DNA of 63,991 nt, the filler included, from Hausera hauseri (taxonomy: Eukaryota): assembly GCA_046269625.1 (NCBI GenBank). It is 13 parts of 13 records of this genome, joined end to end, with 100 filler letters (N's around TTAATTAATTAA, not from the genome) between each part and the next. Parts side by side here need not be neighbours in the genome. Positions count along the whole stretch, not along the records: positions 1 to 5,609 come from JBJURY010221408.1; 12 more parts are not named here. One strand, 5' to 3'. Shown one piece after another: positions 1 through 61,964 of this stretch (its first letter is position 1; each line of letters starts with the position of its first letter). Position numbers and translations under genes: made by a program. The notes under the pieces were generated by a model. The model was not told the origin of the DNA. It searched no databases and saw only the letters and a list, made by a program, of their open reading frames with translations.

Positions 1-1265
1 CAAATTCAACACAGAGATGGAAGCCCACTGATATTCTTACGTTCGAAGTTGGAAACAGAAATGTATCGAATACGAACGACTTTGATTTGTTACTCATGTC
101 TGAAGTCCACCAAAAGTTAAAGAGCTGGCTTCAAGTCCAAGACAGATTCTCGAATGACATTGATGAAACTATGCCACCGTTTACATGCACCGAAAGACAT
201 TTATACATCTCTGGAGTGTTGAAGGTAGTAGTAGTATGTTATGTAAATAAGAACGTTCTTAGTTATTGTCGTTTTTTCAGTTTGATAAACCCTGCCAGGG
301 TTTGTGCGTGTTTGTTTGTGTTTGATAAACTCTGTATGTTTGTTTACAGCCACATATTTAATGGTGGAGATAATCCCCCGGAGAGCAGCCCTCCGATATC
401 AATGGCTGCGAAAACTGGGGAACTTAATTTCAAAAGTTCTATATATACTTATATTTCTGATAAGGGATATGGGGAAATTATGGGAATATATAAACAGATG
501 CCTATGAAATCAAGATTAAGTTTAAAAGAGAAGACACAAATAATGAAGGGTAATATGGAATTCGGTACAAAGTTTGCTAGTTATGGGCCCAGCAAACCTC
601 AAATTAACAACGGGGCACTTATAATATATGGGGCATTTATTTGCGATGAAGCATCCATTTTAAATTCTCCATTTTATGGTAGCAGAGCGTGGTTTGTGCT
701 CTGCACCTTGATCAGCGGACACAAATCACGTAATGCGATTGCCTTCGAAGGTCTGTATGTCCTTCTCCTTGACGTCGGCTTGCCTTCCTTCCAATATAGT
801 ATACATGGAGCGAGAATCCGTGTCGAGCCCGTAAACGTTGCAACAGGAAATCGTGGACGGAGATTAAGCAACGTTGAAGGCGAGACAGTGGTGACGCTCT
901 CGGAGAAAATAAAATTCTTGTTTGGTATTTATTGTAATAATGAAAGGGATAAAACGTCTGATTGTGTCATAAAAAGCAACAGACGTAAAAATATAAATTT
1001 AAAGGAAGGAGATGAAAGTATTGAAAAGAATTTGTATGAGGAGACAGGAGTCAAAAAATCGAGAAAAAGGAATCAAACGCATTCGGACAACATCGAAAGA
1101 CAATCGCTAGAAGAAAATAAAGGAAAAGGAAGGCCAAGGAATCCGAAGAAAAAGTTCAAATTAGATCAGTACGAAATAGGAAGAATTAAGGGAGATAAAG
1201 GTGAAAATAAAAAGAATGGTCCAAAAACGGAAATAGGACAGAATAGTGAACAAGTTGGGTTTCAA

Positions 1266-2720
1266 ATGAGTCAAAAAGGATGTATCGAAGCTAGAGGAGA
1301 CATCGAATCCAGAAGAGACACCGGAAAAGAAGGATTGATTGGACATAAAATAGTGAAACAAGTAATCATACGTTGTAGCGAACGGAACTTTATGGTTGAT
1401 CTAACTGAGAGTCAATCATATTTTAATCTGATCGGAATTGTAGAGGAGAAATTGAAAATCAAAAGTGAATTTGCATTATTACACTATGGGAAGCCTTTAC
1501 GGACTAACAAAGATGTAATAGGTCTAAAACATGGCTCAACGATACAGGTAACATTTCAACTAAAAGGGGGGAGCGAATTAACTATAGATGAACTGGAAGA
1601 TCGTATTGCGGAAAGACGGAGGCCTATAAATGAACTAACAACTATCCGACGAAAACTAATGGATACACATTTAGGTGAACAAGAATATAACTTATACCAG
1701 CAAAGATATGAGAAAACCTTTTCAGAGATACAGGAAAATCTGGGAATATTAGCAGCCGCAGCAAGGAAATTAAAAAGAAAAGAAAATGTTACCCTGTTAG
1801 AAAATGAGATGGAGAAACTGGACGAACAGAATGAGAAAATTAACACAATTATATACGAGAGAAGTCTGAGGGAAAGTAAAGTTAATACAACAAGAAATAC
1901 GAATAGTGGTAATGAAGAAAAAGTCATACTACCAAAACTGCAGAAGTTAGAGCTCCCAAAATTCGGCGGTATAGTCACAGAGTACGATAAGTGGAAAAGA
2001 ACGTTTGACACTTGTGTTCATAAAACGTCAATGTCTGGCATCCACAAACAGCTGCAATTAAATCAATGCCTGTACGGAGAACCCAAGATGCTGATCGAAA
2101 ATTTTGACCTTTCTGAAGAAGGTTATAAGGCAGCGATGGAAAAGCTGGATTCCTACTACGGAGGGGAACAACGATGTTACGCTGCCTTTATGACCGAAGT
2201 GATACGTTTCAATCCAATCAGAGAAGAGGATATCAAAGGACTAGATCGGTTCGTCGCACTATTGGATGGAATAATAGTAAGATTGCAAAATTTAGGAAGG
2301 AAAGAAGAATTAGGTGGAGGATTGCTATACCAAAGCCTTGTAGAGAAACTCCCAGAGTCCATAGTGCTGTTATGGGAGAGACATGCCACCAAAAGAAGGT
2401 TGAATCGGACAGGTGAAGAGTTGAAAACTTGGGTGGAGTTAGAAGCGAGTGTTCGAAGGAGGGCGGTTGAAAGAATTAGGGGTATCAATGCCTTCAATAC
2501 ATTCGAGACCAAGTTACCATCAAGATGTGGACACGAACACAACTTCGGTCAAACGACGTTCAAAGATAATCCGAAAACCGAAAATCACTTCCCCTCTACA
2601 GACAAGAAAAATATGCCGTTCAGGGATAAGAGATATAATAAAGAGGTACGGAAAAGCTTTTACACAGATAAGCAATCAGACCAAAACGAAATTCAAATTC
2701 AAAGTAAAATAAAGAAATGA
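1266..2720 (+). CDS. gag: Ubiquitin-like domain fused to BEL/Pao Gag (start uncertain; ORF track starts it at 87)
   Basis: Ubl at 1356-1571 ending STIQVTFQLKGG, then coiled-coil and DUF1759-like Gag. The frame continues past a single TGA at 2718-2720. Confidence 0.8.
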   Translation: MSQKGCIEARGDIESRRDTGKEGLIGHKIVKQVIIRCSERNFMVDLTESQSYFNLIGIVEEKLKIKSEFALLHYGKPLRTNKDVIGLKHGSTIQVTFQLKGGSELTIDELEDRIAERRRPINELTTIRRKLMDTHLGEQEYNLYQQRYEKTFSEIQENLGILAAAARKLKRKENVTLLENEMEKLDEQNEKINTIIYERSLRESKVNTTRNTNSGNEEKVILPKLQKLELPKFGGIVTEYDKWKRTFDTCVHKTSMSGIHKQLQLNQCLYGEPKMLIENFDLSEEGYKAAMEKLDSYYGGEQRCYAAFMTEVIRFNPIREEDIKGLDRFVALLDGIIVRLQNLGRKEELGGGLLYQSLVEKLPESIVLLWERHATKRRLNRTGEELKTWVELEASVRRRAVERIRGINAFNTFETKLPSRCGHEHNFGQTTFKDNPKTENHFPSTDKKNMPFRDKRYNKEVRKSFYTDKQSDQNEIQIQSKIKK

Positions 2721-3600
2721 GGTAGCGTTAAATCAACAGACAGAACTAGGAAAGGGGCTTGTTGGGAATTTACGAAGAGTGGACATTGTAAATTCGGAAA
2801 TAGCTACAAGTTCTCACATCATAAAGAGAAGAAAGACGCAACACAAATATGTAAATATTTTATGAAAGGTAACTGCAGAAATAGGGAAAATTGCCGCTTT
2901 ATTCATGAATCATCGTTAGGAAAAAACGAATCTAAAAGACAAGGAAAAGTCTTTTGTACATTTAAAACAGAAGAAAGAGTCGACAAAGAGGAAGGCATAA
3001 GAAGCGATATCGATTCTCAGGTTAATACGTACGTAATTCAACGATCAGAAAAGGAAACAACAGGAAAAAAAGTAGCCCTACGTACGGTAGATGAATGGCT
3101 GGAAAATGGGGAGAGAAAAGTGAAAGTATGTATGCTATTGGATGATGCAAGCACAGAATGTTTCATAAAACGCTCTGTTGTCGAACAATCGAAACTGGTT
3201 AATGTTCAAGAAAGTGTATCTGTTATGGTGGTGGGTGGGAAGACGACGAAGGCAAAGATGGAGCGTGTAAAAATGAACTTAAAGAGTAAGAACGGGAGAG
3301 TCGATATCCCATTTGGAGCGCTAGTCTTAAACGACCCTACAGGAAAAATAATGGCTGTAAATTGGGAGATCGAAAAAGATAAATGGCCACATTTGAGGAA
3401 TATAAAATTCGCCACCCAAAATTCACCAAAATCAGTTGACGGAATTATCGGCGCAAATTATATTCAATTGCACAGATCTATAAAAGAAGTAGCAGGAGGA
3501 ATGAATGAACCGGTGGCCAGATTAACCCCGCTTGGATGGACATGCGTTGGGGTAATCGGGGATGAAAAAAAACGAGTACGGAATAACTTCATCAGGTTTT
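2721..3600 (+). pseudogene. Two CCCH zinc fingers plus BEL/Pao aspartic protease, in frame with gag
   Basis: CWEFTKSGHCKFGNSYKFSH (third Cys now Tyr) and CKYFMKGNCRNRENCRFIH; protease motif LLDDAS; frameshift near 3600 into the next pol frame. Confidence 0.85.
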
Positions 3601-3945
3601 TTGGTCTAGGACTGATGAGATACATGAGGATTGGGATAGATTGTGGGAAGCGGAACAAGGGTTCCAGGAAAGACCAGAATTAAATAACGTGGAGACTGAA
3701 TTATTGAGAAAGGTAACTAATGGAGTAAGATATGAAAAAGAAAGATTTTGTGTTAAATTACCATGGAAAGAGGAAAAACATCCTGATGTTAGCGGGATTG
3801 ATTCATCATGGATAGCGAGGCGAAGATTGGAACTGCTAATTAAGAAATTGGATAAGGATATTAGGGTGAAAAACGAGTATGACAAGGTCATCAAGGAGTA
3901 CGAAGTAAAATCATACATAAGGGAAATATCGAAGGAAGAGGAAGA

Positions 3946-4720
3946 AGAAATCCTGAAGGATGACAGCATCCAGATGCCGGAAGGGTTCAAAGAATCACTC
4001 AGAGCAAAACTGGAGGAGCAGATCAAGGAGAAGGAAAGAGAAGAACTATACTCTAAGCTATCAGAGGAAGACAGGCTTGCATTAGAAGTAGGGCACAAGG
4101 TACTAGAGGAAGAAAAGAATAAAGAAGTTACGCGTAAAAAGAAACGCCGCAAACTGTATCTTACCTTGGCGGCATCGCTTGTATTGGTGATGGCCATTAG
4201 TGTGACTAGTATAGGCGTACCTGGTAGGGCGGTCACATTAGTGAAGAGCATAGTTGGAGATAGAGAAGTCGAAAAGATAAATTCTAGCGATAGCAATCTA
4301 ACAGTCGTTAAGGAAAGTGAAGAACAGGCATATCAGAAAATTAGTGATGAATTTGGAACAGAGCCAGTCAAGATTATTAATACACCAGAATCTATGAAGT
4401 TTGATCGCATGGAGTTTGATAATGTTTTACAGACGGCAGAACTGTTTTATGATTTTAAAGGAGAAAAAGTTGTTTATTTAATAAATGCGTCCTATTCTAA
4501 TGCCTCATGGGGCATAGATGTAGAAGATACTATTACGGACAAGTACTATATCGAGATAGATGGATGTAATATCGAAATAAAGGAATATGAAACTCCAAAA
4601 TCTAGTACAAAAAGGTATTCTGCTGGATTTAAGTATAGAGGATTGGAATATTTTATAGTAGGAACAATGAATAAACAGGAATTTGAAATAATCGTAAATA
4701 ATTTGTTTTTTATAAAATAG
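3946..4720 (+). CDS. Bacterial (Lachnospiraceae-like) DUF4367-type membrane-anchored protein, 5' end replaced by BEL pol
   Basis: LSEEDRLALEVG...RKKKRRK-TM helix (LYLTLAASLVLVMAISV); C-terminal YSAGFKYRGLEYFIVGTMNKQEFEIIVNNL, which I recognise from Firmicutes anti-sigma-like DUF4367 proteins. Intact frame, unlike the decayed TE ORFs. Confidence 0.7.
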
Positions 4721-4782
4721 AGCGTCAGTTTTTGTCGAGATATGTGTTTACATATATGAGAGTAAAGCATACGCTTGAGGCT

Positions 4783-4789
4783 GGAGGTG
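4783..4789 (+). promoter_or_regulatory. Shine-Dalgarno GGAGGTG
   Basis: Strong Firmicutes-type RBS 4 nt before the ATG at 4794. Confidence 0.85.
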
Positions 4790-4793
4790 AAAG

Positions 4794-5279
4794 ATGAGAA
4801 AAAGGGTGTGCTCCATATGCTATACGATATTTCTGGTTTTTGGTTTAGTAATGGTATCTTTAGTGAATGTTAAAGCGGCATCAACAGATAATATAATTAT
4901 TGATGGATCCTATTTGACTCATGAAAAAGAATCTATTGGATACGATACCAAAATTACCAGAGGTGAGGATCTGCTGACTGGTTATTCTAAATGTGTACGC
5001 TTAGGTGCAGGGAAGATATATGCTGGAGGAACTACAATTGCAGCACATACTGTGAATAGTATACAAATTGCGGTAATTGTAGAACGTGCCCAGGAAGGCG
5101 ACACGGCATGGTCTTCTTATGATGCGTGGCAAAAAGAAAGTCAAGATACTGATCGAGTAGGAGCAAACAGAACCTTAATGGTTGAAGGTGGCTACTATTA
5201 TCGAGTCAGATGTACTCATGCGGCAAACAGCGATATGAGTAGTTCCTTTACAGATGGTGTCTATGTAGAAGACCCATAG
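4794..5279 (+). CDS. Secreted bacterial protein, DUF6147-like (Lachnospiraceae)
   Basis: Signal peptide ending VKA; IDGSYLT, TRGEDL, KIYAGGTT and VEGGYYYRVRCTH motifs; RBS present. Confidence 0.75.
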   Translation: MRKRVCSICYTIFLVFGLVMVSLVNVKAASTDNIIIDGSYLTHEKESIGYDTKITRGEDLLTGYSKCVRLGAGKIYAGGTTIAAHTVNSIQIAVIVERAQEGDTAWSSYDAWQKESQDTDRVGANRTLMVEGGYYYRVRCTHAANSDMSSSFTDGVYVEDP

Positions 5280-5609
5280 AATATGAAAACCAAAGTATAA
5301 AAGAAAAAGAAGAAAACCAAAAGAAAAAACAAAAAAGAAAAACATTTTGCAATCGGAAAAACAAATTTAGAAAACAAAAATGCCAATATGCTATATCCGG
5401 GGAGATTGCGGGAAGCGCCGTCCGCGGTGCAACAGGAGAAACTATTAACAATAATTTCGACCTTACATTGAGAAACCGTAGACCCACGAGACGGGTTAAA
5501 GTCGTCGTAGACGGTGCTTCCCACAATCTCTCCGGAATCAAGAGAAAAACGTATAAGACAAAAAGGACAGAAAATGATGCGAGGTTATATGCTAGGCCTC
5601 GTATCCTTT

Positions 5610-14365: not shown

Positions 14366-15829
14366 GTGACGAGTGCGCCCCATGCAGCCTCGAAGTGTAC
14401 AGTGTCGACGTTGTGAACGCGATAAAACTTGCCACACGCAGCACGACTAAAGAGACGCCAGACAGTCGTCGGTCTCGAAACCGCTATCAACGAGGTTCAA
14501 AAAGCGCTAAATCTATTTTGTGGGGAACAGGGAGGCCTGAACAGAAGGTAATACCGTGATTAAAAACAAGCTGTATAATCCTACTTTATGATTATCTTTG
14601 CTCTAGTGATAATCGAACACTTCTAATTAACAAATCTCTTCATCAGACAGCCCTTTACGGCATTCTACGCCATGATATTCACGTACATGCTATACATCAC
14701 TTACAACGGAGCAGGCAACTTAGGAAAGTTTTGAAATTAATTCAAAAGGAATTAATAGCTGATAAACCATTCACAGCAAAAATCATTTGTACATCACTTA
14801 GCCTTTCAACAGGTGCTGGGTTTAAAGCTGAATCTTAAATACTTACTAACAATTCCATGGGTGTGTTTAAGAATACTATCGCATTAATTTTTCAGATAGC
14901 ATTAAAAGGTGTAAACAATCCAGATAACATTCATACTTTTGAATACCAAATTTCTCCAGACCTACTTTTACTCAAACGAATCACTAGTTACTTGGAACCA
15001 AACCATTCTAAATAAATATCAATTAAAAATCATCATAACAGCGCAAAAAACCTTGTGATCCACACAAACTGCACCATTTTTCTTACTATTTCTCATTCAC
15101 ATGAATTACTAATTACTTATCATCAGTCTGTGAATACCTTGCTTAGAATTAACGTCGCGTGTGACACTTAAAAATCGAATTTTACGCAGCTCAAAACACC
15201 ATCTAACCCCGCCAATATACTTCATATCCCTAAGCAACTGTATACCAACCTCAAATTTTGCGATACACGAAAAATATTTACGGCAAACTCGGAACAATAT
15301 TATTGTTCATTGTGTAAAAACTCTCATGGTGGTAAGGCATGTCACTCCCTCATCAATATTCACATAGTTCTGCACGCTTCACCCAGTCATAAATGGTCAC
15401 CCTCCAATGATACCAATCTATTCCGAAAATTCCAAAAAATTATAATCCAGTACTTATACTCCAAAATAATGTTCAATACTCAATTGACGTCTGTCCTTCT
15501 TGGCATCCCACCTGTTTTTGCGTTGTCGGCTCCATGATCCCCAAAGTGGTATATGTCTATCGAGAACTTAAATCCGTTAGTCATATAAATACATACGAAT
15601 ATTCCACAAAAGCCACACTTTTAAACCCTACCAAAGCCGCTCATTCAAGTTCATTGATTGGAGCAACAAATACCGCAACCAACCTCTCACCTACGAGCGC
15701 TGACTGCGGCTTGGCGACACTTCCCGTTGATCTGTCGGCTGTACAACCAAGGCGTTGTCTGGTTGAGAGCCTGAGCACGCCCGCCCCCTACGCGCTCCAA
15801 CAGTCCTCCGGCATTACGTTACATTCCCT

Positions 15830-17118
15830 TTGCTTTTTTATTTTTCTTAACAACAAACACGTCTGTACACTAAGTGCTACATACAAACATACTGAACACA
15901 CTTTGCTCTTCATTACCTTCTTTCTTCGGCACCTCAGACTTGTACTTCTTGCATAATGGTTTGACCCTGCTCTCTACCGACTCTCTGTCATCCTTTACAC
16001 TTTGCAAACATCCGATCATTCATCTCACTCTCCATTTTCGTATCCGGGGCGGATCGGACCCTGATCATTCTGCTAAAATTTCACCAAAACCAAATCTGGT
16101 CGCCGCCCTGCTGACTCTACACAATCTGCTTCTCTTAATCTTCCTTGTACGAAGTTTTTTCTCGATAAAACTAACTTAAGTCGCACCTGGCTACAATTTC
16201 ATTTACAATGGCTTAAAGCCAATTACATTACCGATTCTTTCTTGCATGCCAACAACGTGTTACTTATTCTCCCAGCAAATATCAAGCAGCAAATCAATAA
16301 TCTTGCTGATATTCTTACTTCTTCAACACCGTACGACATGCTTTACCAGTCTGTACTCCATATTACAGATCCATCGATCGATAATATAATACAAAAATAC
16401 TTTAATGAGCATGTTATAGGCAATCAAAAGCCTTCTGACTTTCTGCAGACATCTAATTCACAAATAAGTGCTCTTGAAGTTACTCCCATTAACAATGCAG
16501 ACTTGCTTCGTCGTTTTTTCCTTTCCTCTTTGCCTACTTCCATTAGGGCACTTCTTACTGTCGTCGACGACTACATAGACATTCAAAAACTCGCCATAAT
16601 GGCTGAGAAGAGTTTTGAAATTCTTCAATCGAATAATACGTCGCCTATAGAGGCGGCAACCACTTATACGCCATCACAGCCAGACACCATTTTATTTTCA
16701 CAACAACTGCAGATGATTCAGAAACAATACGACACATTGCAACAATCAATTTCGGCGATTACGGCCCAAATTAGTAATTTATCTGTATTTCGACGAGGTG
16801 AGACTCGTGTTTCGCGCGATCAAAACATCTCCAGGCACTCATTTCGATCCAGATCTCGAGGCAAACCAATGATTAGCTTTTATCATACTAAATTCTGCAG
16901 AGACACAAAGAAGTGTCTCTTGGGCTGTCGATTTTACTACGAACGGTATGCAGTAGACATCCCTATCTGCATTTATCACACTAAATATCAATCGCAGGCT
17001 AGGTTATGTGTGCCGGGATGCAAATATTATAAAAAACTTCAATTTTTCTCCACCTTCTCCTCCTCCTCATTTTTCTTTTCATTCTTCTTCTTTTTGCCAA
17101 CAATCCTCAAAAAACTAA
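15830..17118 (+). pseudogene. gag: Ubiquitin-like domain plus Gypsy Gag (three frameshifts needed)
   Basis: LYFLHNGLTL...IIHLTLHFRIRGG with GG at 16048-16053; Gag frame open from 16077; reconstructed end ...QQSSKN* at 17118. Confidence 0.7.
17109..17118 (+). promoter_or_regulatory. -1 ribosomal frameshift site A AAA AAC followed by TAA
   Basis: X XXY YYZ heptamer at the gag/pol boundary; the -1 frame stays open towards the protease. Confidence 0.65.
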
Positions 17119-22040: not shown

Positions 22041-24180
22041 AACTCTTACTGTTACACACCCCACACGCCATGGTATATATCGATGATGTAATAATAGCAT
22101 CATAAAATTTTCAACAACATCTAAAAGATCTGCAAGACCTATTCGATACGTGTGAAATTATGGGTCTGAATATAAACCCGAAATGTTCGTTTGCTCAAGC
22201 GGAATTAGATTTTCTTGGACATAGAGTAGACAGACACGGCGTAAAGCCTCAAGATAAATTATTGCGAAAAATAAGAGACTTCCCAAAACCAACTACAGTT
22301 AAAGCGTTACACCGATTCTTAGGTTTGACGAATTACTATCGAAGATTTATAAAAGATTTCAGCAAAATCTCAAAACCCTTATATGAAATATTGCATGAAG
22401 ATCTGGATACAGTAATTTGGACTAGGGGGTGTCAAAAAGCCTTTGAATATTTAAAACAAAGGTTGTTAACTGCTCCTATATTACGTTACCCCGATATGAA
22501 CAAGCAATTCATATTAGCTACAGATGCAAGCGATTATGGAGTCGGAGCAGTGTTGTCACAAAAGGGTGAAGATGGTAAAGTGCATCCAGTAGCGTATGCA
22601 TCACGAAAACTTAATAAGCACCAAAAGAAATACGCAGTAATTGAAAAAGAGTTGTTGGCAGTAATATTCGCTCTAGAAGTATTTTCACTTTATATTAGTG
22701 AAAATAAACCATTACTGATATATACCGATCATCGACCACTACAATGGTTGAAACAGCATAAAAATCCCAACAGTCGATTATTACGATGGGCTCTTAAACT
22801 GCAACCCCACACACTAAGTTTCCAGTAAAAACCTGGAACACGGAACGGCAATGCAGATTATTTATCCAGGATGACAGAAGATTCAAAGGTGAAGAAAGAG
22901 GTAATAGCAGCAGTTTGGAGCACGGATGGATAAGATAGAGAAGATCAAACAAAACGAACAAGATCTCGAAATAAAAGTAATCAGGAATTTTATACAGAAT
23001 AAAGTATTACCAACAAACAGAGAACTAGCCCGACATTTGGCTCGATTTAGCGATGCTTATGAAGAGAAGGACGGGTTTTTATATTACATCCACCAGGACG
23101 GACCGGCATTAGTAATCCCAAAGAAAAATAGAACAGCCTTGCTAACACAATATCACGATGGACTACTCGGGGGACACCAATCACCAAGGAAGACACTTAA
23201 TAAGTTAAAACGAAAATATTTTTTGGCTCACTATGACGAAGGACGTACAAGAATGGTGTGAAAGTTGTAAATTATGCGCTATCCGGAAAAACACCGGATC
23301 AAAATTTAAAGCACCTTTAAAGGTATGGGACAATCCCCCAGCACCATTCGAATTTACCGCAATGGATATAACGGGACCACTACCATTAACACGGAATGGA
23401 AATAGATATATTTTAGTCTTTATTGACTATTTCACTAAATGAGTTGTAGCCATACCCATGGCAGATATGAAGGCGGATACGATTGCTGAAAAGTTTGTGG
23501 AAAACGCAGTGTTTAATTACGGAGCCCCAAGAATTATTCTAACCGACCAAGCATCAAATTTAACGGGAATTGTGATGCAGTCTATATATGATATCTTAAA
23601 GATACTGAAGTTATGATCCACACCAGGACACTCAGAAAATAACAGATTGGTCGAGAGGTATATCGGAGATTTGAAAGGGAAATTACAAACAGTAGTCAAT
23701 ACTAGACAAGACGATTGGGATGGGTATGTCAAGGCATGTGTATTTGTAAATCGAACGTCAGTTCACGAAGCCACTAAAGAAACACCCTTTTATCTAATGT
23801 ATTTACGGGATGCAAGATTACTTATTGACTTAGACTTTAATGTGAGACCTGTCTCACACTTGATGGAAGTGGAAGACTACAAACAATTAATGCAAAAACG
23901 TCTCCAATTAGCCTACAAAACGATTGGCGGTAACCAAGAGGATTATAAATCCAAATACAAGAAATATTATGATAAGAAAACCAAGCAACCAAAAATTAAG
24001 ATAGGCAACCAAGTAATGTTATATTCTCCGGCACTTAAGAAAGGTAAGACATCTAAGTTAGATAGACCTTATAAAGGGCCTGTATGAAGTAGAAAAGGTA
24101 AATATGCCGAACATCTGTTTGAAGAAGAATAATACATCCGTGAAGATCCATGTTAACAGATGTAAACCAGCGGCCCGAGA
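22041..24180 (+). pseudogene. pol: Ty3/Gypsy pol (RT C-terminus, RNase H, integrase)
   Basis: VYIDDVII; FLGLTNYYRRFI; ATDASDYGVGAVL; IEKELLA; TDHRPL; HDGLLGGH...CKLC; MDITGPL; TDQ; GPY. Confidence 0.95.
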
Positions 24181-25653
24181 AAGTGAGTTAAGGAAAGGTA
24201 AAAAGGAAATCGTACTAAGTATTAATGAGAAGGTAAAAGAGGAAAATTCAACTCATAGAATATACTGGCTAATCAAGAGTCTATTGTTAACAATTATCTT
24301 TTTATTGCCCCAAGTGGCCAAGCAGATGACGGAGGAAGAAGTCGAACGAGCAAAAATACGACATGCCACGGCCATAAACGAGGACCTATGGATAAAAAGC
24401 CTAAAATTACAGATGACATACTCCAGGAAAGGCCAGAAATGCATTACCTGGTATACCACAAGACGAATGCCTGGCGAGTATATCATAGGGATACAAATAA
24501 CCCCAGTTTACGGTTATAAGAGAAACCCCAATGAGCGATATAATGCCTGTATGCTCCACTCATTGACAAACGAAACACAATGCCTGATAAACACTTCGGG
24601 AACACTTGGAGTATATCTTACACTCATAAAGAAAAAAGGCGACTATTATTGTAGTTTTTATGTCAAATTTCACAGGTATATTCGAATTCCCAATAGACAT
24701 GAAATGAATGAAACACTACTAGATGAAATAATACTTAACCAGGTAATAATCAGACCAATGAGATTTAAAAGTGGACGAAGTTGTCTCGAAATTAGGAGTA
24801 TGATAGAATTGGAATATATCCGATGGATAACAATATCCATAAAAAGCAGGAGGCAAACAAAGATCATCAAAATGTAAAATAACAAATGAACAACAACAAG
24901 TTTGTTGTAACGTAACAAGAGGCCAAATATACGATGTAAAATACACTCTGTCTTGAAAGGAACACGGAAAATTCAAAAATAGAATGCAGAGAAAAGGGCC
25001 AACGATATTCATACGATACAGGAACCAGAAAGAATACGATGATATACCAAAAAAGATCACGACGCCATCTGTGCGATTCTCGGCTGATAAAGAAGAGATG
25101 ACTATCTTAATTAAACCTTACGCTTCATATCATCGTCAAAAAAGTTCCATATGGGATAACGTAACAGTTATAGCAGCCCCCACCGCATTAATTATCTCCG
25201 TTAAACCAGATTTAGATTCTGTTAAAATTAAATTTAGTTGTAAGAAGCAAGACACCATAGTCGCAAAAGAATCATAACCCCTGATGACCTGATCGTACCG
25301 TATGCGGCTTTGGAGCCTGATATGAAATACACAGTCATTCTACAATTGTTAGATAACAATGATAAGATAACCTCTACCAAAGTTATGTCCGCGATTACAA
25401 AAAGTAACAGAGTAGAATCACCATATATGATAAATACAGTTAGAAGTAAAACAACTAAATAGTCATCACGGGCGGTGTATAAGTATTCTCGCCTAGAAAT
25501 AATCATAATGGGTTCAATAGTCCCATAGCAGTTATAACAATAGTAGTGATATTGTTTAAGGTGATACGACTACGACGCAAGAGGAAACAAATCTGGGTAC
25601 GAATCAACCTTCGCGAGCTAACGAACCCGTTAGCAACTGACAACCCCAGCTGA
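24181..25653 (+). pseudogene. Env-like type I membrane protein extension of Pol with FN3-like ectodomain
   Basis: Signal-like IYWLIKSLLLTIIFLLPQVA in frame after the GPY module; LEPDMKYTVIL and VTRGQIYDVKY; TM IIIMGSIV/IAVITIVVILF then basic RLRRKRK; stop at 25651-25653. Confidence 0.65.
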
Positions 25654-25834
25654 CGGTTAAGTCTAGGAATTGCTATTTACGTAACCCTTTCAACAAAGAT
25701 AACCATATGTCATCAGGTTACTTATAGAAATAAATTGAAATATAAAACTACAACGATTACCACTGTATGTTTGATAACCGTTGTGTTGTGTCTAGATATC
25801 TCCATTGACTTGCGATTGACATTTCTTTTTACAG

Positions 25835-26900
25835 TATCGACCTCAACCGCTCACCAGATTCAAACGATTACCAGATCGAAGCATTGATTCAGTAATGCAA
25901 AAACTCATCTCATTAATGCCACGCCAGCCAGTCAATACTATGTGGTCCACAACGACTACACCTATAGTTTGAATTATTCTCAAACACCACAGATCCCAAA
26001 CAACCTTAAGGGATACAGCATGGGCAATCGATCGCTAGCCCTAATCCAATTGACTAAAGCAACTTCTTTCTATCTCAATGATCTGATAATTCTGCCTGAA
26101 AGATATCATTCCATAAATATTTATAATATTGCAGGCAAATTTCACCTTAAGTCTACCAATCGCAAGACCTCAATACAAGGAGATTTAATCAATATGGACC
26201 CAGACAATGCTCTAGCTTTTGAATATAGATTTATAAAAGATAACACTCTAAAGATCCGCTCCCTTTCTAACCGGATCATGATAGCATTCGAAATCATTAA
26301 ACACGAAACATTTCAACCTACAATCTCAGAAGGTAAATGCTTCCATCTCCCAAAACCCGTCTACCTACGATATAAGACAATTCCATACAGACGGATCCAA
26401 AATATCACGAATATGGATATGATCATAGCTGCCGTCAATCTGGTATATGACGAATGGAATCAAATGCAACCAATCGAATGTTTAGTTATAACGTTAGACG
26501 GTCAAACACTCTTCTACAGTGTCATCTCTCCCCGACAAAGAATCAATAATTTTGATACCCATCTAAGAAGTCTGACGGAATCCCATATAAACAACCAAAT
26601 GGATGCGAATGAATTCTATCGCAAAATTACTGAGGTACTAACAGATAAAATCATAATTGGAGCCGACGTTCTCGAAATGGTTATCAACCACTGCAAATGC
26701 CCAGTCAGACGGATAGCCGGAGTTCGCGATATTCTTTATCACCAAGAGGCTATCCGTAAATATCAATTAACTACAAACACTTATAAGGAGTTGGCAAAGA
26801 AATTCTACGATACTCGTGGAATGCCACTCTGAAGTACAATCTTGGTACAGTTACCAGGCTATCTACAAACAATTGAAATGGACAAATAAAATAATCACTC
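25835..26900 (+). pseudogene. Extra 3' ORF with inactive REX4/ISG20-like DEDDh exonuclease domain
   Basis: CLVITLDGQTLFYSVISPRQRINNFDTHLRSLTESHI...LTDKIIIG...VRDI. Preceded by splice acceptor TTTCTTTTTACAG ending at 25834. Confidence 0.6.
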
Positions 26901-36967: not shown

Positions 36968-37224
36968 TTAGTGATTACAATACAGATCACAATTTTCAGG
37001 TGTTGCTTTATATACTGAAGGTATTCTTGATATAAATATATGTATGTATTCTTCTGCTGTTAGATTTCGATTTGCCGTAATTTTATACAAGGGTATTGTC
37101 CAACGTCGAACAGCTTTGTTATTTACATCTAGGGACTGAGCAGATATACAGATCACTAGGCTTAGCATTATAAATGTTGTTATTATTAATGAGCTAGAAT
37201 TTTCACTCCTTATCCTTGATTCTG
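36968..37224 (-). CDS. Signal peptide and start of env-like extension in frame with integrase
   Basis: SLIITTFIMLSLVICISA|QS directly after the GPY module in ORF 36968..37735; contig ends just after. Confidence 0.55.
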
Positions 37225-40200
37225 GTGGCGCTGGTTTGCATTGATTTACATGAATTTTTATGGCATTCACTTTGTTTCTTTTATTTTTATTTAAGTAAAC
37301 ATTAACTTCGTTCACTTTCTGAATTGTATAAGAACCTTTATATGGTCTATGTACTTTTGAAGTTTTGCCTTTTTTACTTAAAGGAGTATGCAACAAAACG
37401 TTATCTCCAGGTTTATAGTTATGTGATTTGGCCTTTTCGTCATAACGAGTTTTGTATTCTTTTTGACAAATTTTTATATGTCGTAAAGCAAAATTCCATA
37501 CGTATCCCAGTTTCTCTTCTAGTAATTCTTTATATTCCATATCTTTTAAATAAGAGATAGGCATTTTGAAATCTAAGTCAACCAGCATATATGCATCTCT
37601 GAGATACATCAAGTAAAACTGTGTTTCTTTCGTTACAGGATGAATCATGTTTCTGATAGCAAATAAACACGGTTTGATATATTCATCCCAGTCGTCTTGG
37701 CGTTCATTAACCATTGTAGCCAACATGTTTATCACTATTCCATTAAACCTTTCTACTGTTCCATTGGTTTGAGGATGATACGGAATTGTTTTTATTTGTT
37801 ATATCCGAAATATTTTTGATATATCTTCTATGACTTCTATAAAGTTTGGGGATTGATCTGTCAATAGTTTAGAAGGTGCTCCATAATTAAAGATGATCTC
37901 TTCAACAAAGGCTTGAGAGATAATCTGGACCTTCTGATCCGGTGTCAAAATTACTACCAGCCATCTATATAGTAAATCTACAAATACTAACATGTATTAA
38001 TTTTCATTCACTATCATTGGCATCGGTCCAAAAAGATCCATAGATGAAAATTCCATTGGAGCTGGTGGGCATTTTAATAGCTTAAGACGAGCTTTAATTT
38101 TTGAGCCTGTATTTCTATGTGTAGCATAGATGGGATAGCTTTTGCATCATTCTTGTACATCTCTTTGCATATTTTGCCAATAATACTTTCTTTTTAATCT
38201 GCCCAAAGTTCGTCTTACCGATTGATGTCCTCCCATCATGCCATCATGATACTGTGTTAAAAGTGTCTTTATGTCTTCTTGTGGGATGACTACAACTGAT
38301 TTTCCTTTATAGTTGCAGTATAATATATCATTTTTAATCTCGTAATTTTCGACAAATTTTTCGAGATGAGCATGGAGGTTGGTATCATTTGGTGTAATTT
38401 TCTTTTTCATGTACTCTCTTATTTGTTTTATTTTTTCGTCATTCTGCTGTCGCTGTAATAACGATTTTTCTTGATCCATAGTACTCCAAATGGCTGCTGC
38501 CATACGTCGTTTTTTTTTTCTTTTTGGTCTCTATCCTTAGGCATTCTCGAAAAGTAATGTGCTTTTGCGTTAGCCTTTCTGGTTTTACATTCAAATGTAA
38601 GATCATATGACTGGAGCAGCATTGCCCATTTTATTAAACAGCTATTTGAGTTCTTATGATTTTTCAGCCATTGCAATGGCTTATGATCAGTATATACGAC
38701 GATTGATTTTGTCGCCGATAAGTACTGACCATATTGTTCCAGTGCATATACAATCGCGAGTAACTCCCTCTCAATCGTAGAGTGGTTTCTTTCGTTTTTT
38801 CGTAATTTTCTTCCTCCGAACGATATTAGATGTTCTTGTCCTTTGTCTTCCATTTGTGATAACACAACTCCAATTCCGACTTTACTTGAATCCGTAGCTA
38901 AGAAGAATGGCTTTGATATATTTGGATAAGCTAATATTGGCGGGGATAACAAATTATCTTTTAACTATTGATATGCCTTTTGACATTCTTGAGTCCATAT
39001 GTGTTTGGAAGTTTCTTGTAGCAATGAGTGTAACGGAGCGGCTATTTGTTGACAATCCTTGACAAATTTTCAGTAGTAGCCTGTAAGGCCAAGAAATTTT
39101 CTAAAACATCGAATTACTTTTGAGATTGAAAAATCCTGGATTTTATTGATTTTTCCAATCTGAGAGCTAATGCCTTCTCTACTCACGGTATGACCTAAAA
39201 GTCAACTTTGGTTCAAACAAAACATCATTTATTAAGGCTCAATTTTATGCCAAGGAGTGCACATCTTTCTAGCATATCTTTTAGATGCTATTTATGTTGT
39301 TTATAATCTTTTGAAGCAATTATAACGTCATCCACATATCACATTATATACTGAGCGTCCATGGTAATTATATCCATTGCTGTCTAGAAAGTTGCTGGGG
39401 CATTTTTTATTCCGAATGCCATTCGGTTAAATTCGTAATGCCAATCCGATGTCAGGAACGCTGTTTTCTGTTATCTTTTAGTTTGTCCAGTATCTCCTCG
39501 ATTCTGGGTAACGGATAGGTATTGTCTATCGTTACTTCGTTTAAAGCCCGATAGTCTACACACATTCTTATCGATCCGTCCTTCTTTTGTACCATTACTA
39601 TCGGAGCTGCCCAAGGAGAATTACTTGGTTTAATTATATCACAATGTCTCATTTCGGCTATTATCTCTTTAGCCTTTTCTCTTTTGTCATAATTGAAACT
39701 ATACAGTCTCTTCTTAATGGGATTCTCCATACCCTGTTTCAATTTGATTTCACACTTGATTACAGATATTATACCCATGTCGTATTCATCTATTGCAAAT
39801 ATATCTTTATATTGCTGCAATATTTTGACTATGTCTTCTTTTCCCGCGTCCGTTAATAAACTTTCTTTACCGAACAAGTCGTAGTCATTCCAATCGATAA
39901 CAGTCTTTACAAGTTTTTGTAATCTTATTTTTGTTGAGATAGGTTTTAAGTTTATTCATAGGTTCGTTTCCGAAACGTATTCCACATTTGACATGTGTTT
40001 GCCGTCGTTGTTTTTCCATAAACTCCGACAATTCTTCCACAGTAGATACGATGGCTTCTGTCGCATTATTTTCTATATCTTTCACGATATATACATAGGC
40101 AATTCGTGCGCCTTTTCTCAACAGTTTTGATTTATTAGAGACATTGGCAATCTGAACAATTAATTGTTGTTCTCGGATGTTATCAATGGAATGAGCTATC

Positions 40201-41391: not shown

Positions 41392-44300
41392 TTACAGTGC
41401 CACATGTCCATGAGGTAGTGTGTGGACTCAATCACTCAGGATCTGCCGCTTGTCGTCCAACCAATCTAGGGTCTTCTTGTGCAGTTCTACTGTTTGGATG
41501 TTATGATCCCTATATTGGATCCTTCGCATTTTCGATATTATGTGAGTCTGCTCCTGCAGAACTCTCACACAGACCACAAAACTGATCTTGTTGGTCCATG
41601 TAGTTCTTTGAATGCCCTTTGCTCTCTTTGATTTGGCCACATACGTCCAGAGCATACATTTTTGATCACAATGCCACGAAACGGGTGATGATCTTCCAAT
41701 TCACCTCGTCTTTAAATTTCCCGCAGACTTTCTTATTGGTGGTTGAAATATTTGGATGATCCTTTGGATAATCCGAGATATCCGTGTGCGGAGTAAATTG
41801 TGCAAAATCTTCAGACATGTCCTCAGTATGGATGTGATAGATAAAACTATCAATATCCACATATATATATATATATATATATATATCAGCTGCATGGACT
41901 TGAATGTTGGTACCATTGTATCGAATTGGAAGTGGTACATTAGGTTTTTGATAGGCCCAATATTGCCATACCCACATATATGGGCTTGTTGAATACTAAT
42001 GCCGTTTTCTGCATATGGATGCCTACCAAGTTCTCACATATATCGTGCTGTTGTGGACGTTAGGCTTGGCAATAAGCTTCTTTGCCCCCTTCCAGTCACA
42101 AACTAGATCGGTGTTGATCCTGCTACGGATATTGTCCATCATCTTGCTAAAAACGATGTTATTATACAGCTTAAATTGATCTTTTTCGAAATCGTTCTTG
42201 GCATTTGTCCGCAGCTTGGTATTGAGATCAATGTAGGATTGCAGCAACATGGACTGGCTGAATTGGACGCTTCTATGGAACTTAGTAATGCGGAGTCCAT
42301 GTTTAACTGCCTGTTGGGGATTTATGTAGTGGGCAACATACCTCTCACTATTACCCAAATGACAGAGAAGCTTTCGCTGCTTTCCATAGGGCGGTGGCCT
42401 GTTCTCAGGGCGGAAAGGCAGCTGTTGATGCCTTGTGTGGATGGAAGCCGGATAATCCATATCCACCTCGAGTATGTAGCCCGTATCTCCAGTGGGATCC
42501 AGGTCCAGGATAGGGATGTCTTCAGGGTGCTCAACCCACTTAAAGTTATCATATGGCAATGCGGCGCTCATTGCCCATCCATACAAGTTGTTGGCATCCA
42601 GGTAGGAAATATATAATGACTACTTTGTTGAGTCGTATTCAGCCATACACTTGTTATTGGTTTTGCTACACCGGTGAATGGCTTGGCATATTCCTCCTCT
42701 AATGCTCTTTCGATCATAAGGATCATGTCGTAATCCTTAATGATTTGCAGCCTAATACCGGTATAGCACAGCATTGCTACCCAGCTCATCCCTGGAGCCG
42801 TGAAGAAATGAGCCTGATCCAAAGTATGGCTCTTCATGGTAATATCCCTAAAACTCTCAAAGACATCTATCAGCAGCAGCACATCGGTTTGTAGATATAT
42901 ATATCACTATATTCCCCTAATGGTCGGCATTGGAATGCATGCCAGACGTTCTGAGCATGCTAGTAGTCCTCATCACTGATATCGCAGTCCGACAGCTGGC
43001 TGTAAAAGTCATTGGTCGGTAATGAGGACTCATGAGGACCAACATGCTCAGTGAAAGTGATATATTTCTCCTCACTGTTAGGGATCACATCTATATTGCC
43101 ATCAAGCTTGCTTAATTCTCGGACTATATAGTGACTGTCATAGCCGCTGAGATAATGGAATATAACAGGCACATATTTGCATGTTTTGCAGCGAAAATTG
43201 CAGTTGTTACATGCTGCGCCCCGATATGCACCTGTAAAATGGCAATGATATTCGACTTTCCACTTTGCCTTGGTGAAGAACTTGTCGCGCAGTAGCATGA
43301 TGTTGCCTTGTGCCATTCTTCATCTTGTTTCCACGCCATGCTCATATTATCCTTATGTTGTTGCAACATGTTTTCAAGCTCATAAGCCATGTCTTCAAGT
43401 CTCTTCGTGAAATGTGCTGCTGCACCTTGACCTCTGAATAGATGTTATTCACTGTCCATTCCTTTGGTATACATACAATACGATAATAATTCATGATAGT
43501 GGTATGCCGTTGTAGAGCTACATTGAGTACTGAGACTGCATGTGTGATCTGGCCTAGAAAGGAACCTTGATCTTCTCGAATTCCTTAAATTCAATATAGT
43601 CCTCTTTGGGAAATACTGGCCTTACACAATAATTGTTGTTACAGGACATATTGTGCTGTTTAAGCTTGTCCACGGCCTCTTCACCACTGAAACGGGGCAA
43701 GCATCGTTTGCATATTTCGATTCCGTGTTCATGCTTTGTTATTTGGGATCTGACTAGACGTTCAAGGTTCTTTATCCAAACAATGTTTCTTATCACCATC
43801 GTCTAGTAGGAGCAGATCCTATGATCTTCCAATTCAGCATTGCATATTTGTAAGGGGTAGAATTTGTCATCATCCAATCCAAAGATATTGATAGACATGT
43901 TGATGCGGCTGAACTTCTTGATTTCATCTATAGATGGAAGGAATGTGAAACACTGAAAATCGTAGTTGTATTGGAGATCATTATATAGCCAAATTCGATC
44001 TGCTGCATGTTTTTGATCCCGTACGAGTTTACATAAAGCACATACATGAAGCTCTTGTTGTCATTATGGACACTGATGCAAGCATTTTTCTGCTGAATCC
44101 ATTACGGAAGCTGAATATATGAACTGCCTCGCATGGGGGAGTATCTGTGTACATATATAAGCAGTCTCTTGATGGTTGCCAGAGTACATCCACTCTTCTT
44201 ATCCTGGCTTTCATCGGCTTCACTGATCAGCTTCGTATGCTCTTCATTCAGCCATTCAGCTATATTTGTGTTTTCCAATATGGGCCTATTTTTGGCCTTG

Positions 44301-51294: not shown

Positions 51295-52230
51295 GATAAT
51301 TCTCCCACTAATAAGGATCAGTTAGTGAATATTGCCGATTATATCGCTACCCGAGATAACTTTCTATTCTATCTAACTCAAAACAATCGAAGAAATATAT
51401 TAGGAGACAATTCAAAAATTTTAGAGTGAATTTCGAAACTCTAAGAAATCGCCTGGCCATTTATGCATCCAACCCAGAGGTGATCACAATAACCCTTCCT
51501 TTTGGTGAAGGAATCCTAGGCAGAGTCCTAAACGTGTTATATACCTACAAATGTAAACGATTAGAATTTCCGTTGATTACCGGCACTCCATGTTATTCTG
51601 AAATACCCGTTAAATATAACGAGGAAATCCAATACGTTCAGCCTATTGCTAGAGTGCTCCTGGCATCCCATACAATATCTACGGAAATTCAGAATTGTTC
51701 AGCACTAAATAAACCATTTATCAAGTATGATAATCAAGACATTTGGGTTAGATTACCATATCGCGATAGAGTTATAGAAAAACCAAAGAAATTAACGATG
51801 ACAAATTTAAAACATGCGATTGAAACCAATATGTTTACCGACGTGTTTAAATCCGCACAACATAGTAAAAAATAAATTGATTCATTCGTGAAGATTTTAG
51901 CACATTCCAGACAGAGAGAACAAATAGTTAATCGCGGAATACACTGAGTAATCGACGACACAGCCGGAGAAGGAAATTTGGATTGATTATGGACACCTGA
52001 TGCCTATACTAAAATCGTTTTAAATTTATGGTATAAAATGTGGGGAGGATTCTTCAAATTTTGCCAAGTAGCTTCAGGGTTTCTGGCCATATACTTCATT
52101 ATACAAACCTTGAAAGTTTGTGTTAACTCTGTATTAAATGCCTATGAGATTTACAACCTAACGGGATTGTCACTGAGCATAATAGGAGCTCTATTTTCCC
52201 CACTTGGACAATTTATTAAGGCATATCATG
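51295..52230 (+). pseudogene. env: C-terminal half of chuvirus-like/gB-type glycoprotein (env)
   Basis: VLYTYKC...PCYSEIPV...VQPIARVL...C...W...WGGFFKFCQVASGFLAIYFII...AYEIYNLTGLSLSIIGALF (two hydrophobic segments). Confidence 0.8.
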
Positions 52231-52733
52231 AGAAACAATGGCGAGGTAAATTAAAAAAACATGTCGACTATAAATCAGAGAAACAATTTCCTAAGGACAC
52301 CTCATCAAGTTCAGGTGACAGCAATGCCCCTAAGTATTATCCTACAACAAGGATTCCTAAGTATACGAGGAGAAAATTCAAGTTTATGAAGCCAAATAGA
52401 AAGGATAAACACAAATTACCTGCTGAACCATACAATAATAAAACATTGCCCATTTGTAAATTACCAAATCTAACAGATTTAACGGATCATTATACAAAAA
52501 GGGAAAATTATATAAAGTTACGTAGCTGACCAAAATACTCTCAGGAAGAGATACGTCAATCCATTATTACACGGAACATGGAAAATAATCGAGTAACATT
52601 ACCTGTCTCACCCAAAATGGGTACGTTATCCTCAATACTTTATCCTCAAGTAACTAGATCAATAAAAACTCAATCAGAGAGATAATCTCATTTAACTACT
52701 TCCGAACTTAACAATAAACAACAGACAACATTA

Positions 52734-60003: not shown

Positions 60004-61964
60004 ATGATTTGTAGCACAAGTAACATGCTGTTGCCTTAAGCTATTCTTCTTCTTGCTACTTGGACATGCTCATTGTATCTTTATGATGCTGCTATATCTT
60101 CAAGTCGTTTAATGAATTGAGCTGCTGAGCCTGAACCTTTGAATAGAACTGGTTCACTGTCCAGTCCTCTGGCATACATGCAATATGATGAGAGCTCATG
60201 ATATTGGTATGCCGTTGTGCTGCTATGTTTGGGATTAGGACTGAAACTGTGAACTGGATGCAGGATCGCTTCAAAGTCACAATAGATAACTATTGGGACA
60301 TTGATCTTCTTCGCGAACTCCTTAAATTCAATGTAATCCTCCTTGGGACATGCTGGCCTGGTACAATAATTTTTGTTTATGTACATCTTGTGCTCCTTCA
60401 GCTTCTCCACAGCTAACTTACCGCTGAAATGGGCCAAGCATTGTTTGCATACTTCGATTATTTTCTTGTGTTTTGTAATTTGGAATCTGACTAGACGCTC
60501 AAAGTTTTTTATCCAGATGAAATGCCTCTTTTCACCATTATCTAGTAGGAACAGATCCCTATGGTCTTTTAATTCAGCATCACATATCTGCAGGGGATAA
60601 AATTTGTCCTTCTCATCCAATCCCAAGATACTGATTAATATACTGTTGAGTCATCCGAATTTTTTGACTTCATCTATGGATGGTGGGAACTTGATACACT
60701 GGAAGTCATAGTTGTGCTGCACACCTTTATATAGCCAAAATCGTAAAGCATTATGTTGATCCTGTACGAGTTTTGATATAATGGCATACATGAAACACTT
60801 GTTGTCATAAGTATGGACATTGATGCATGCCTTTTTCCTTACGATCCATTCCGAAAGCTGAATATAGAAACTGCACAGCATTGGAGAGTACTTGTGCACA
60901 TACACAAGCAATTTCTTAATTGTTGCCAGAGTCCATCCGCTCTTCTTATCTTGGCTCTCCCCGGCTTCATGGATCAGCTTTTTGTGCGCCTCTTGCAACC
61001 ATTCTGGTATATTGGTGTTTTCCAATATGGGCCTATATTTGGTCTTGAAGGCCCTATTGGATTCTTCGCTATCAACATTGATATATGTGGCCTCCAGTTT
61101 CATATTCACTTTAAGGGTTTGAGCCCCACCATGTTGTCCTGGAGAATTCCCTCTGTTTCTTCCTTTGTATATTACAGGAACTCATGGAGTGTTGTTTGAC
61201 CATTTGTATCAATAACATAGCTGTGGCATTTTCTCTTTAATGTAGCGGCATCAACTGGCGAGTCTTTTTTACTTTTTGTTGGAGCCGCGGCGTCTGATAT
61301 GGCTGTGTCTGATGCGGCTGCACGTTTCAATTCAGTAGTATGCTTCGCAGCTGCTGCACCAGATCCAGCAGCATAATGCGAAGCATTATACTGCGAAGCA
61401 TCATATTGCGTAGCAGATGCATCAAAATTATGTTGCACATTGAAGATAGTCTACTTGGACTTTGATGCGAAGTGACTCAAATGATGTTTGTGATCATAAT
61501 AGAACTGTATGTAGTTTGTACCATATACAATCTCGCATCATGGACATATATAATATTCGATCCTTTTAGATTTGTATCCAAAATACCGCTGCATCGTTTC
61601 ATGACACTGTTGCGGATTATGTGCTTTGGGTGTGCAATAAGCGTAGGAACCGCACATCGGAATTGCATTTGGGACACTTGTTGCCATTGGCATACTACTG
61701 TTGAATATTTCTTTCTTCGATTCTGTGAATAAATCCCGATGCTGTTTATTGTGCTAATTGTAAAATTTCTTGTAACCGATCCGTCACACTAACTAACATG
61801 CACGACACACATAGTATTGAGTCCTGTTGTATTAGTATCCAAAATGATATTGCATCACACTATGGCAATTCTGCTCCTCATGTTTCTGCGCCATGCAACA
61901 TTTGTAGAAGTTGCAAATCTAAACAAATCAATTATTTGAGGAGCACAAATAAGAAACGCACCAT
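60004..61964 (-). pseudogene. polB: Polinton-type pPolB 5' half; close relative of 41392-45103
   Basis: KVNMKLEATY; KKSGWTL; NKCFMYAI; WIKNFERL; VIYCDFEA. ATG at 61964 followed by a 43-nt GT-AG intron (61919-61961). Confidence 0.92.

Follow-up and report, generated by a model that had tools for sequence, protein, structure and literature searches.

The analysed stretch of DNA (the window) comprises 63,991 nucleotides of the Hausera hauseri assembly GCA_046269625.1 and consists of 13 short contigs concatenated with N-flanked spacers. A Pfam scan and inspection by eye indicate that its content is mostly decayed retroelements and Polinton-like polymerase pieces. Near its start lies a truncated BEL/Pao retrotransposon in which a ubiquitin-like (Ubl) domain precedes Gag, and a second element, on another contig, probably has a similar arrangement. 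The features of the two elements are as follows.

326..750, + strand: probable LTR or other very abundant repeat, where most contigs pile up and, in several runs, contigs come loose at 319/326 and 707-779
677..695, + strand: primer-binding-site-like motif, found by motif search
930..1355, + strand: open K/E/N-rich leader, unconserved, in frame with the Ubl; the lone in-frame ATG after 555 is at 1266
1356..1571, + strand: diverged ubiquitin-like (beta-grasp) domain of 72 amino acids ending LKGG (AlphaFold, Foldseek, VIA, ESM Atlas)
1566..1574, + strand: Gly-Gly|Ser junction, predicted cleavage site
1584..1880, + strand: N-terminal helical bundle of Gag (helices at model residues 83-181)
1962..2390 (about), + strand: BEL/Pao Gag core, DUF1759 (Pfam E 7e-17)
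2721..3600, + strand: CCCH zinc finger region and aspartic protease (zf-CCCH_4 E 3e-7; Asp_protease_2 E 0.023, under the cut-off)
3587..3931, + strand: start of BEL pol (blastp to P0014, E 2e-7), in another frame and cut off near 3931 by what is probably a chimeric joint
15825..16053, + strand: broken ubiquitin-like domain ending FRIRGG, then Ser (ubiquitin HMM; frame break within about 15873-15906)
16077..17030, + strand: Gag of the second element, not DUF1759, in a different frame from its Ubl (56-60% identical to P0003)

Frame 3 is free of stops to 2717 and holds the Ubl and Gag of the first element without interruption (KQVII...FQLKGG at 1356-1571, then SELTIDEL, the helical region and DUF1759). 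The Ubl starts with the K at 1356, LKGG occupies 1560-1571, with Gly-Gly at 1566-1571, and Ser follows at 1572-1574. These coordinates, the open frame and the DUF1759 match confirm the original prediction of 72 residues that end in Gly-Gly, are followed by Ser and are in frame with a BEL/Pao Gag. The Ubl lies inside the open frame and not at its start; it lacks a Met, and the nearest in-frame ATG is that at 1266, 30 codons upstream. Upstream features include one LTR-like abundant stretch, whose membership in the Ubl-Gag element is putative and for which no second copy was found within its contig, and the primer-binding-site-like motif, which we take to be of the initiator-Met tRNA type. Sibling contigs diverge between about 779 and 1183, and the region upstream of the element may be mosaic. 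Note that 3-1265, which spans the LTR-like and PBS-like region, is open for all of its 421 codons; a simple base-composition model puts the chance of this at about 4e-15. This open frame, for which no Pfam match was found, could be a genuinely long leader or an effect of contig assembly.

Downstream of the Ubl, the order of DUF1759 Gag, zinc finger, aspartic protease and pol is that of BEL/Pao elements. The helical bundle of Gag is kept in the related proteins P0001, P0005, P0007 and P0009, and its structure matches are generic helical bundles. The Gag core is linked by tblastn to the BEL Gag-Pols P0010, P0012 and P0014, similar Gag-Pols carry Peptidase_A17 and DUF5641, and the nearest DUF1759 clusters in the ESM Atlas are mostly from arthropods, although they score only 0.80. 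Together with the types of element present, these clusters suggest an invertebrate animal as host. For the Gag core, where model confidence was low, fold searches turned up no clear capsid match, and their lists were filled by the Ubl and the helical bundle. An in-frame stop at 2718-2720 shows that the window copy is broken. The zinc finger and protease region beyond it is 57% identical to P0005. Its fingers are of the CCCH type (2757-2906 in the window; two in P0005, residues 408-454); retroelement Gags usually carry CCHC knuckles.

The contig had been described as chimeric at a place other than the Ubl-Gag junction, and we agree: family contigs end at 3893-3948, around the joint near 3931, which is probably an assembly chimera. 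Past this point, the frame crosses a GAA-rich stretch into a DUF4367 gene (Pfam), presumably bacterial. The whole of 3931-5609 is bacterial-looking DNA, with the DUF4367 gene and its neighbours joined in frame to the pol of the element via the GAA-rich stretch.

Structure prediction confirms 1356-1571 as a ubiquitin-like beta-grasp domain. AlphaFold returned a beta-grasp with pLDDT 86.7 from an input alignment of the window and P0001 only, without canonical ubiquitin. Foldseek gave 153 matches to this model at E<=0.001, the rows listed being ubiquitin and Ubl chains. Aligned to ISG15 by VIA, it scored Z 10.6 with an rmsd of 2.3 over 71 residues, and ubiquitin and SUMO were level with ISG15; for the three, TM lay at about 0.7-0.76 and Z at about 10-10.6. 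By ESM Atlas features, unnamed clusters of 76-82 amino acids came first, and the best named clusters were ubiquitin/Rad60-SLD at 0.93. We regard the domain as established because the Atlas features and the AlphaFold beta-grasp are joined by near-canonical ubiquitin at the same site in two relatives. Viral fold matches were weak, with BVDV polyprotein fragments among them (E about 0.008), and FUBI chains were absent among the top-listed rows of the structure and profile searches. A two-sequence profile matched ISG15 at E 0.024, and not FUBI, which is too weak for a claim of descent.

The predicted likeness to ubiquitin thus stands in fold, whereas in sequence it is weak. The window Ubl is identical to host-type ubiquitin (the reference used throughout, which may differ from the host's own) at 17/71 positions (24%). 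It has no Pfam match, PF00240 included, and no match in a PDB phmmer search. On an HMM of 52 ubiquitin units it scored P=0.005, with 16/500 shuffles as high. Pairwise alignment places A42, L44, Q68, T70, Q72, L73 and K74 in the window copy, so that the R42, I44 patch and R72-L73-R74 that mark ubiquitin proper are not all present. The GG-type tail by itself is within chance expectation: the six frames of the window hold 7 [LIVM][RK]GG motifs, where 30 Markov resamples averaged 5.2, and the five outside the two Ubl domains are at chance level. A six-frame scan of the window with the ubiquitin HMM found no third Ubl.

Five known family members show the junction (the window, P0001, P0005, P0007 and P0009); the relatives are metagenomic proteins, several of them in-frame chimeras elsewhere, with P0007 from JGI and P0009 from ENA. 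All five have a Ubl-GG in frame ahead of Gag with Ser at P1', and Gly-Gly is kept in 4/4 relatives with a visible junction, as the original prediction called for. P0002 belongs to the clade and was excluded from the GG count, its predicted protein beginning past the junction. In the five, GG|S lies 127-129 amino acids ahead of the LPxFxG motif of Gag, a constant spacing although the Gags of the two subgroups are merely 28-33% identical. The GG linker has low confidence in the model and lies between two folded units; it is predicted to be flexible.

Contigs from other sequencing runs cross the same junction without gaps, at 1441-1796 in X3 (3 differing letters) and at 1465-1874 in X4 (17), among 32 contig pieces listed, with 3522 more. 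Because two other runs bridge it, the fusion does not stem from the chimera of the window contig; run X1 may be the window's own source. Among the pieces listed, X3 record 17 and X4 record 25 part from the window sequence at 1582, 11 bases past GG. Contigs number 2647, 597, 148 and 140 in the four runs, at 82-100% likeness, and the family is therefore large. Variant rows are uninformative on the GG codons, with none there among the 40 listed of 579. None of the three outcomes named beforehand as counting against the fusion (no fold, a Gly-Gly not conserved, no sequence across the junction) occurred. A JGI scan with P0007 found Gag or RT beside none of 79 ordinary ubiquitin loci among the best 80 of 582 matches. 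Eight of the scanned loci (L004, L007, L023, L038, L056, L059, L062 and L064) are ordinary ubiquitin loci with unusual C-terminal partners, which by eye we take to be thioredoxin-like, HCQVPC-starting, AN1-type finger-like and HMG-like. They show how frequently ubiquitin is fused to new partners.

The relatives fall into two subgroups. P0001 is 60% identical to the window; its Ubl shares 31/76 residues with the window Ubl and ends HGLKGG|SDL, and P0005 starts MAFKLKGG|SEI. P0007 and P0009 instead carry near-canonical ubiquitin (Pfam E 4e-28 and 6e-23; 62/76 and 61/75 identical to host-type), ending LRLRGG|SCV and LRLCGG|SSE, and followed by the homologous Gag. P0007 retains R42/I44/K48/R72/R74, K63 and the whole LRLRGG tail, and in P0009 these are intact or nearly so. 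P0009 was found by Gag-only alignment, so it was not its ubiquitin that selected it. In a Gag tree of 11 rows, the five Ub/Ubl-bearing rows and P0002 lie on one side of a branch marked 85/95, not starred. Two further candidates, P0006 and P0008, are repeat proteins and were rejected as chance matches. Among the relatives collected, none had both a Ubl and full pol, and locus scans of JGI metagenomes, viral contigs and prokaryote genomes found no relatives of the element.

Between members of the diverged subgroup, identity is 41% in the Ubl and 73% in Gag, so that the Ubl evolves the faster. Its most conserved part is the C-terminal end, where window and P0001 agree in 12 of the last 18 residues vs 19/58 elsewhere. 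LKGG is invariant in the window, P0001 and P0005 while the residues before it vary (FQ, HG, FK), and R42 is replaced by A or M, I44 by L (window) or S (P0001), and R72 by Q, G or K. As far as these alignments tell, the cleavage end is kept in this subgroup, and the receptor and E1 surfaces are not. The P0007 and P0009 ubiquitins each match the host type at about 81% of positions and one another at 68%; they have one shared change, two further changed sites that differ, and 11 and 12 private changes. Since shared changes are few and private ones many, we infer that their common ancestor had nearly host ubiquitin long after its split from the window's subgroup. On the stem leading to it, ubiquitin would have been either held constant or recaptured at the same site. 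The leaders of the window, P0001, P0007 and P0009 have no significant likeness to one another (best E 0.19). Immediately ahead of its ubiquitin, and in frame with it, P0009 has RPB10 (residues 3-40) and a diverged fragment of HSP90 (226-324). These pieces may be captured host mRNA cargo or an assembly mosaic, the latter because P0004 and P0005 are also in-frame chimeras.

The second element, on another contig, had been proposed to have the same design. Its Ubl runs into the junction ...HLTLHFRIRGG|SDP, ending at 16053 just ahead of Gag, and RVT_1 and RT_RNaseH pieces (Pfam) downstream of that Gag mark it as Ty3/gypsy type. The C-terminal piece of its Ubl, chosen for its tail, scored P 1.8e-4 on the ubiquitin HMM (0/500 shuffles as high), and the domain read through the break with X scored P 3.2e-4 (0 and 1 of 1000 shuffles as high); window-wide, E = 0.96. 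No Pfam Gag match was found for the window piece of this Gag, which ends in two Cys/His repeats (16850-17030; also in P0003 and P0004), C-x-YH...C-x-x-GC-x-F/Y. Its Ubl is a single copy without sibling support, because P0003 and P0004 stop short of the N-terminus. On sequence grounds, the second element probably carries Ubl-GG|Ser. The signal is there, but it is weaker, frame-broken and from one copy, and supports recurrence moderately.

Elsewhere in the window, a broken Monjiviricetes-type fusion glycoprotein gene at 51360-52526 (Pfam E 1.5e-11 and 5.6e-16) lies immediately upstream of a Ty3/gypsy protease-RT; the order is odd, and these are possibly two adjacent elements. Two other Ty3/gypsy-type elements have long extra frames past integrase, in an env-like position (24062-26832 and 36971-37300), for which Pfam gave no useful matches. 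Decayed pieces of Polinton/Maverick-like protein-primed DNA polymerase lie at about 7800, at 34100, at 42026-42619 (DNA_pol_B_2 E 3.6e-7, Pfam) and at 60084-61181, all except the third assigned by eye.

By analogy with cytopathic pestiviruses, the Ubl is probably a host-protease processing signal that removes an unconserved leader and gives Gag a Ser N-terminus. The element encodes leader, Ubl, Gly-Gly and Gag in one frame, and its ubiquitin would have been captured from a host mRNA. Cleavage behind Gly-Gly by a deubiquitinase or Ubl protease of the host would then free a Gag that starts with Ser, the benefit being, on this view, that all Gag has the same N-terminus. This reading is favoured by the fixed GG|S spacing in 5/5 members, by near-canonical ubiquitin in two relatives, by the unconserved leaders, and by the lack of any ubiquitin signal upstream of Gag in five more distant BEL proteins. 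Cleavage of ubiquitin fusions is established behaviour, provided that P1' is not proline, and cleavage at GG in P0007 and the canonical relatives is accordingly expected by analogy to be very likely. We are less sure of the window's diverged copy. Release of Gag by host deubiquitinases, as originally proposed, is a weaker reading for this copy because R42, I44 and R72 are replaced (R42 by A, I44 by L and R72 by Q, in the tail FQLKGG). FUBI, 36% identical to ubiquitin, is cut by USP16/USP36 only, and deubiquitinase reactivity depends on an RXRGG tail and the surroundings of Ile44 (PMC10611586). Against processing, the window Ubl stands at 24% identity vs the 36% of FUBI, and it diverges faster than its Gag. 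In the window's subfamily, the Ubl may have drifted away from ubiquitin receptors while still folded and cleavable, probably by a narrower protease set, as for FUBI. The need for a host protease is also not obvious, because the element has an aspartic protease of its own.

The divergence of the window copy invites a different account, in which the Ubl of its subfamily is no longer cut and has become an integral N-terminal domain of Gag (a folding aid, or a site of oligomerisation or host binding), with GG as a flexible linker and with only the near-canonical relatives processed. A fold that is well kept at 24% identity with R42/I44/R72 replaced would suit such a domain, and the Ubl domains of PB1, midnolin and Ddi2 match it structurally almost as closely (Z 9.3-10). 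We consider this unlikely: LKGG is invariant in three members in which the residues before it vary, the C-terminal part is the most conserved, and the homologues at the same position are plain ubiquitin. Another account makes the released leader-Ubl-GG the selected product, either as a conjugatable modifier or as a decoy that occupies host E1, deubiquitinases or receptors, so that the element is less readily degraded or silenced. Many viruses have ubiquitin-like proteins of their own, and P0007, which keeps LRLRGG, K48 and K63, could plausibly be an E1 substrate once released. E1 and receptors, however, read R42, R72 and the I44 patch, which the window and P0001 are without, and both canonical copies are diverging from host ubiquitin at roughly the pace of their Gag, which a functional modifier would not do. 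Such a product is improbable in our estimation. For the window copy, the suggestion of a conjugatable Ubl is disfavoured because R72 and R42 are lost; the sequence hints against E1 conjugation there and leaves it open for P0007.

An uncut Ubl could also stand in for a late domain of Gag, or act as its degron, by recruiting ESCRT or proteasome receptors. No PTAP/PSAP, PPxY or YPxL motif was found in the 5 Gag sequences scanned, and ubiquitin fused to Gag can drive budding (PMC2958808). The fusions described there are C-terminal, have GG deleted and require L8 and I44, but the Ubl here is N-terminal, keeps GG and has L or S for I44, and no env was seen in the element, itself truncated. The late-domain analogy drawn earlier is disfavoured for the window copy on these grounds, and we give receptor recruitment very little credence. 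Least credible of all is that the fusion is a chimera made in assembly or a passenger under no selection. The joint near 3931, the in-frame mosaics P0004, P0005 and P0009, and the two contigs that stop fitting at 1582 might suggest it, but the same junction recurs in five sequences from ENA and JGI sources with Gags down to about 30% identity, the fold is retained at 24% identity, and no ordinary ubiquitin locus among the 79 adjoins Gag or RT. The chimera version is already largely refuted by the five-member junction and the bridging contigs.

Processing by host enzymes may belong to a broader history, which we offer tentatively and think somewhat doubtful as a whole. LTR retrotransposons would have repeatedly captured ubiquitin at the N-terminus of Gag: once early in this BEL/Pao lineage, a second time (or as a renewal of the first) around the P0007/P0009 ancestor, and separately in a Ty3/gypsy element. 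Host deubiquitinases would then serve as the Gag maturation protease, the upstream region would be free for arbitrary cargo, including host mRNA pieces (such as HSP90 and RPB10 in P0009), and leader-ubiquitin would be released into the host ubiquitin system.

The closest known parallel is in cytopathic pestiviruses (BVDV Osloss, CP1 and CP Rit), where host ubiquitin is captured in frame within the polyprotein, directly ahead of a viral protein. There, captured ubiquitin, even where it is internal and behind an S27a fragment, is a processing signal cut by cellular hydrolases to yield an authentic N-terminus, and other host mRNA may lie upstream (S27a in CP Rit) (PMC8310069 and PMC13517609). The present case differs in that the carrier is an LTR retrotransposon, the downstream protein is Gag and cleavage is predicted. 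In addition, the retrotransposon insert is fixed in a large family and has the age to have drifted down to 24% identity, whereas pestivirus inserts are recognisable host sequence in single isolates. Fusions of ubiquitin or FUBI to ribosomal proteins, such as FUBI-eS30 (USP36/USP16), likewise place Ubl-GG ahead of a nucleic-acid-binding protein, and in that example a diverged Ubl is served by a restricted deubiquitinase set (PMC10611586). In those host genes, however, nothing precedes the Ubl, whereas here a leader does. Among BEL/Pao elements (Belpaoviridae), P0013 from Aedes albopictus combines PHD with DUF1759 and resembles our element in having a DUF1759 Gag, zinc fingers, protease and pol in order, together with an extra host-like N-terminal domain. 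Unlike in P0013, the extra domain here is ubiquitin with a predicted cleavable tail, and the fingers are of the CCCH type. Engineered PFV and EIAV constructs also hold ubiquitin and Gag in one chain, but are artificial and have the opposite geometry to the window element (PMC2958808).

The literature search found no earlier description of Ubl-GG-Gag in retrotransposons, and the architecture is apparently undescribed, as had been suspected; Repbase, Dfam, GyDB and supplements lay outside this search and may hold annotation. The principle of captured ubiquitin as a processing signal is known, and the retrotransposon setting appears to be new. LTR retrotransposons are held to fix extra domains only rarely (PMC9289625). 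With a stable ubiquitin-Gag fusion, a retroelement would hand a step of Gag maturation to the host ubiquitin system, for which we found no earlier case; this would parallel the pestiviruses yet be fixed over a long time. Identity to ubiquitin grades within the family from about 82% down to 24% while GG|Ser stays constant, a natural series in which the drift of a Ubl can be tested against its cleavability and the proteases involved. If the Ubl is indeed a processing signal, host deubiquitinase levels would be predicted to control the activity of the element.
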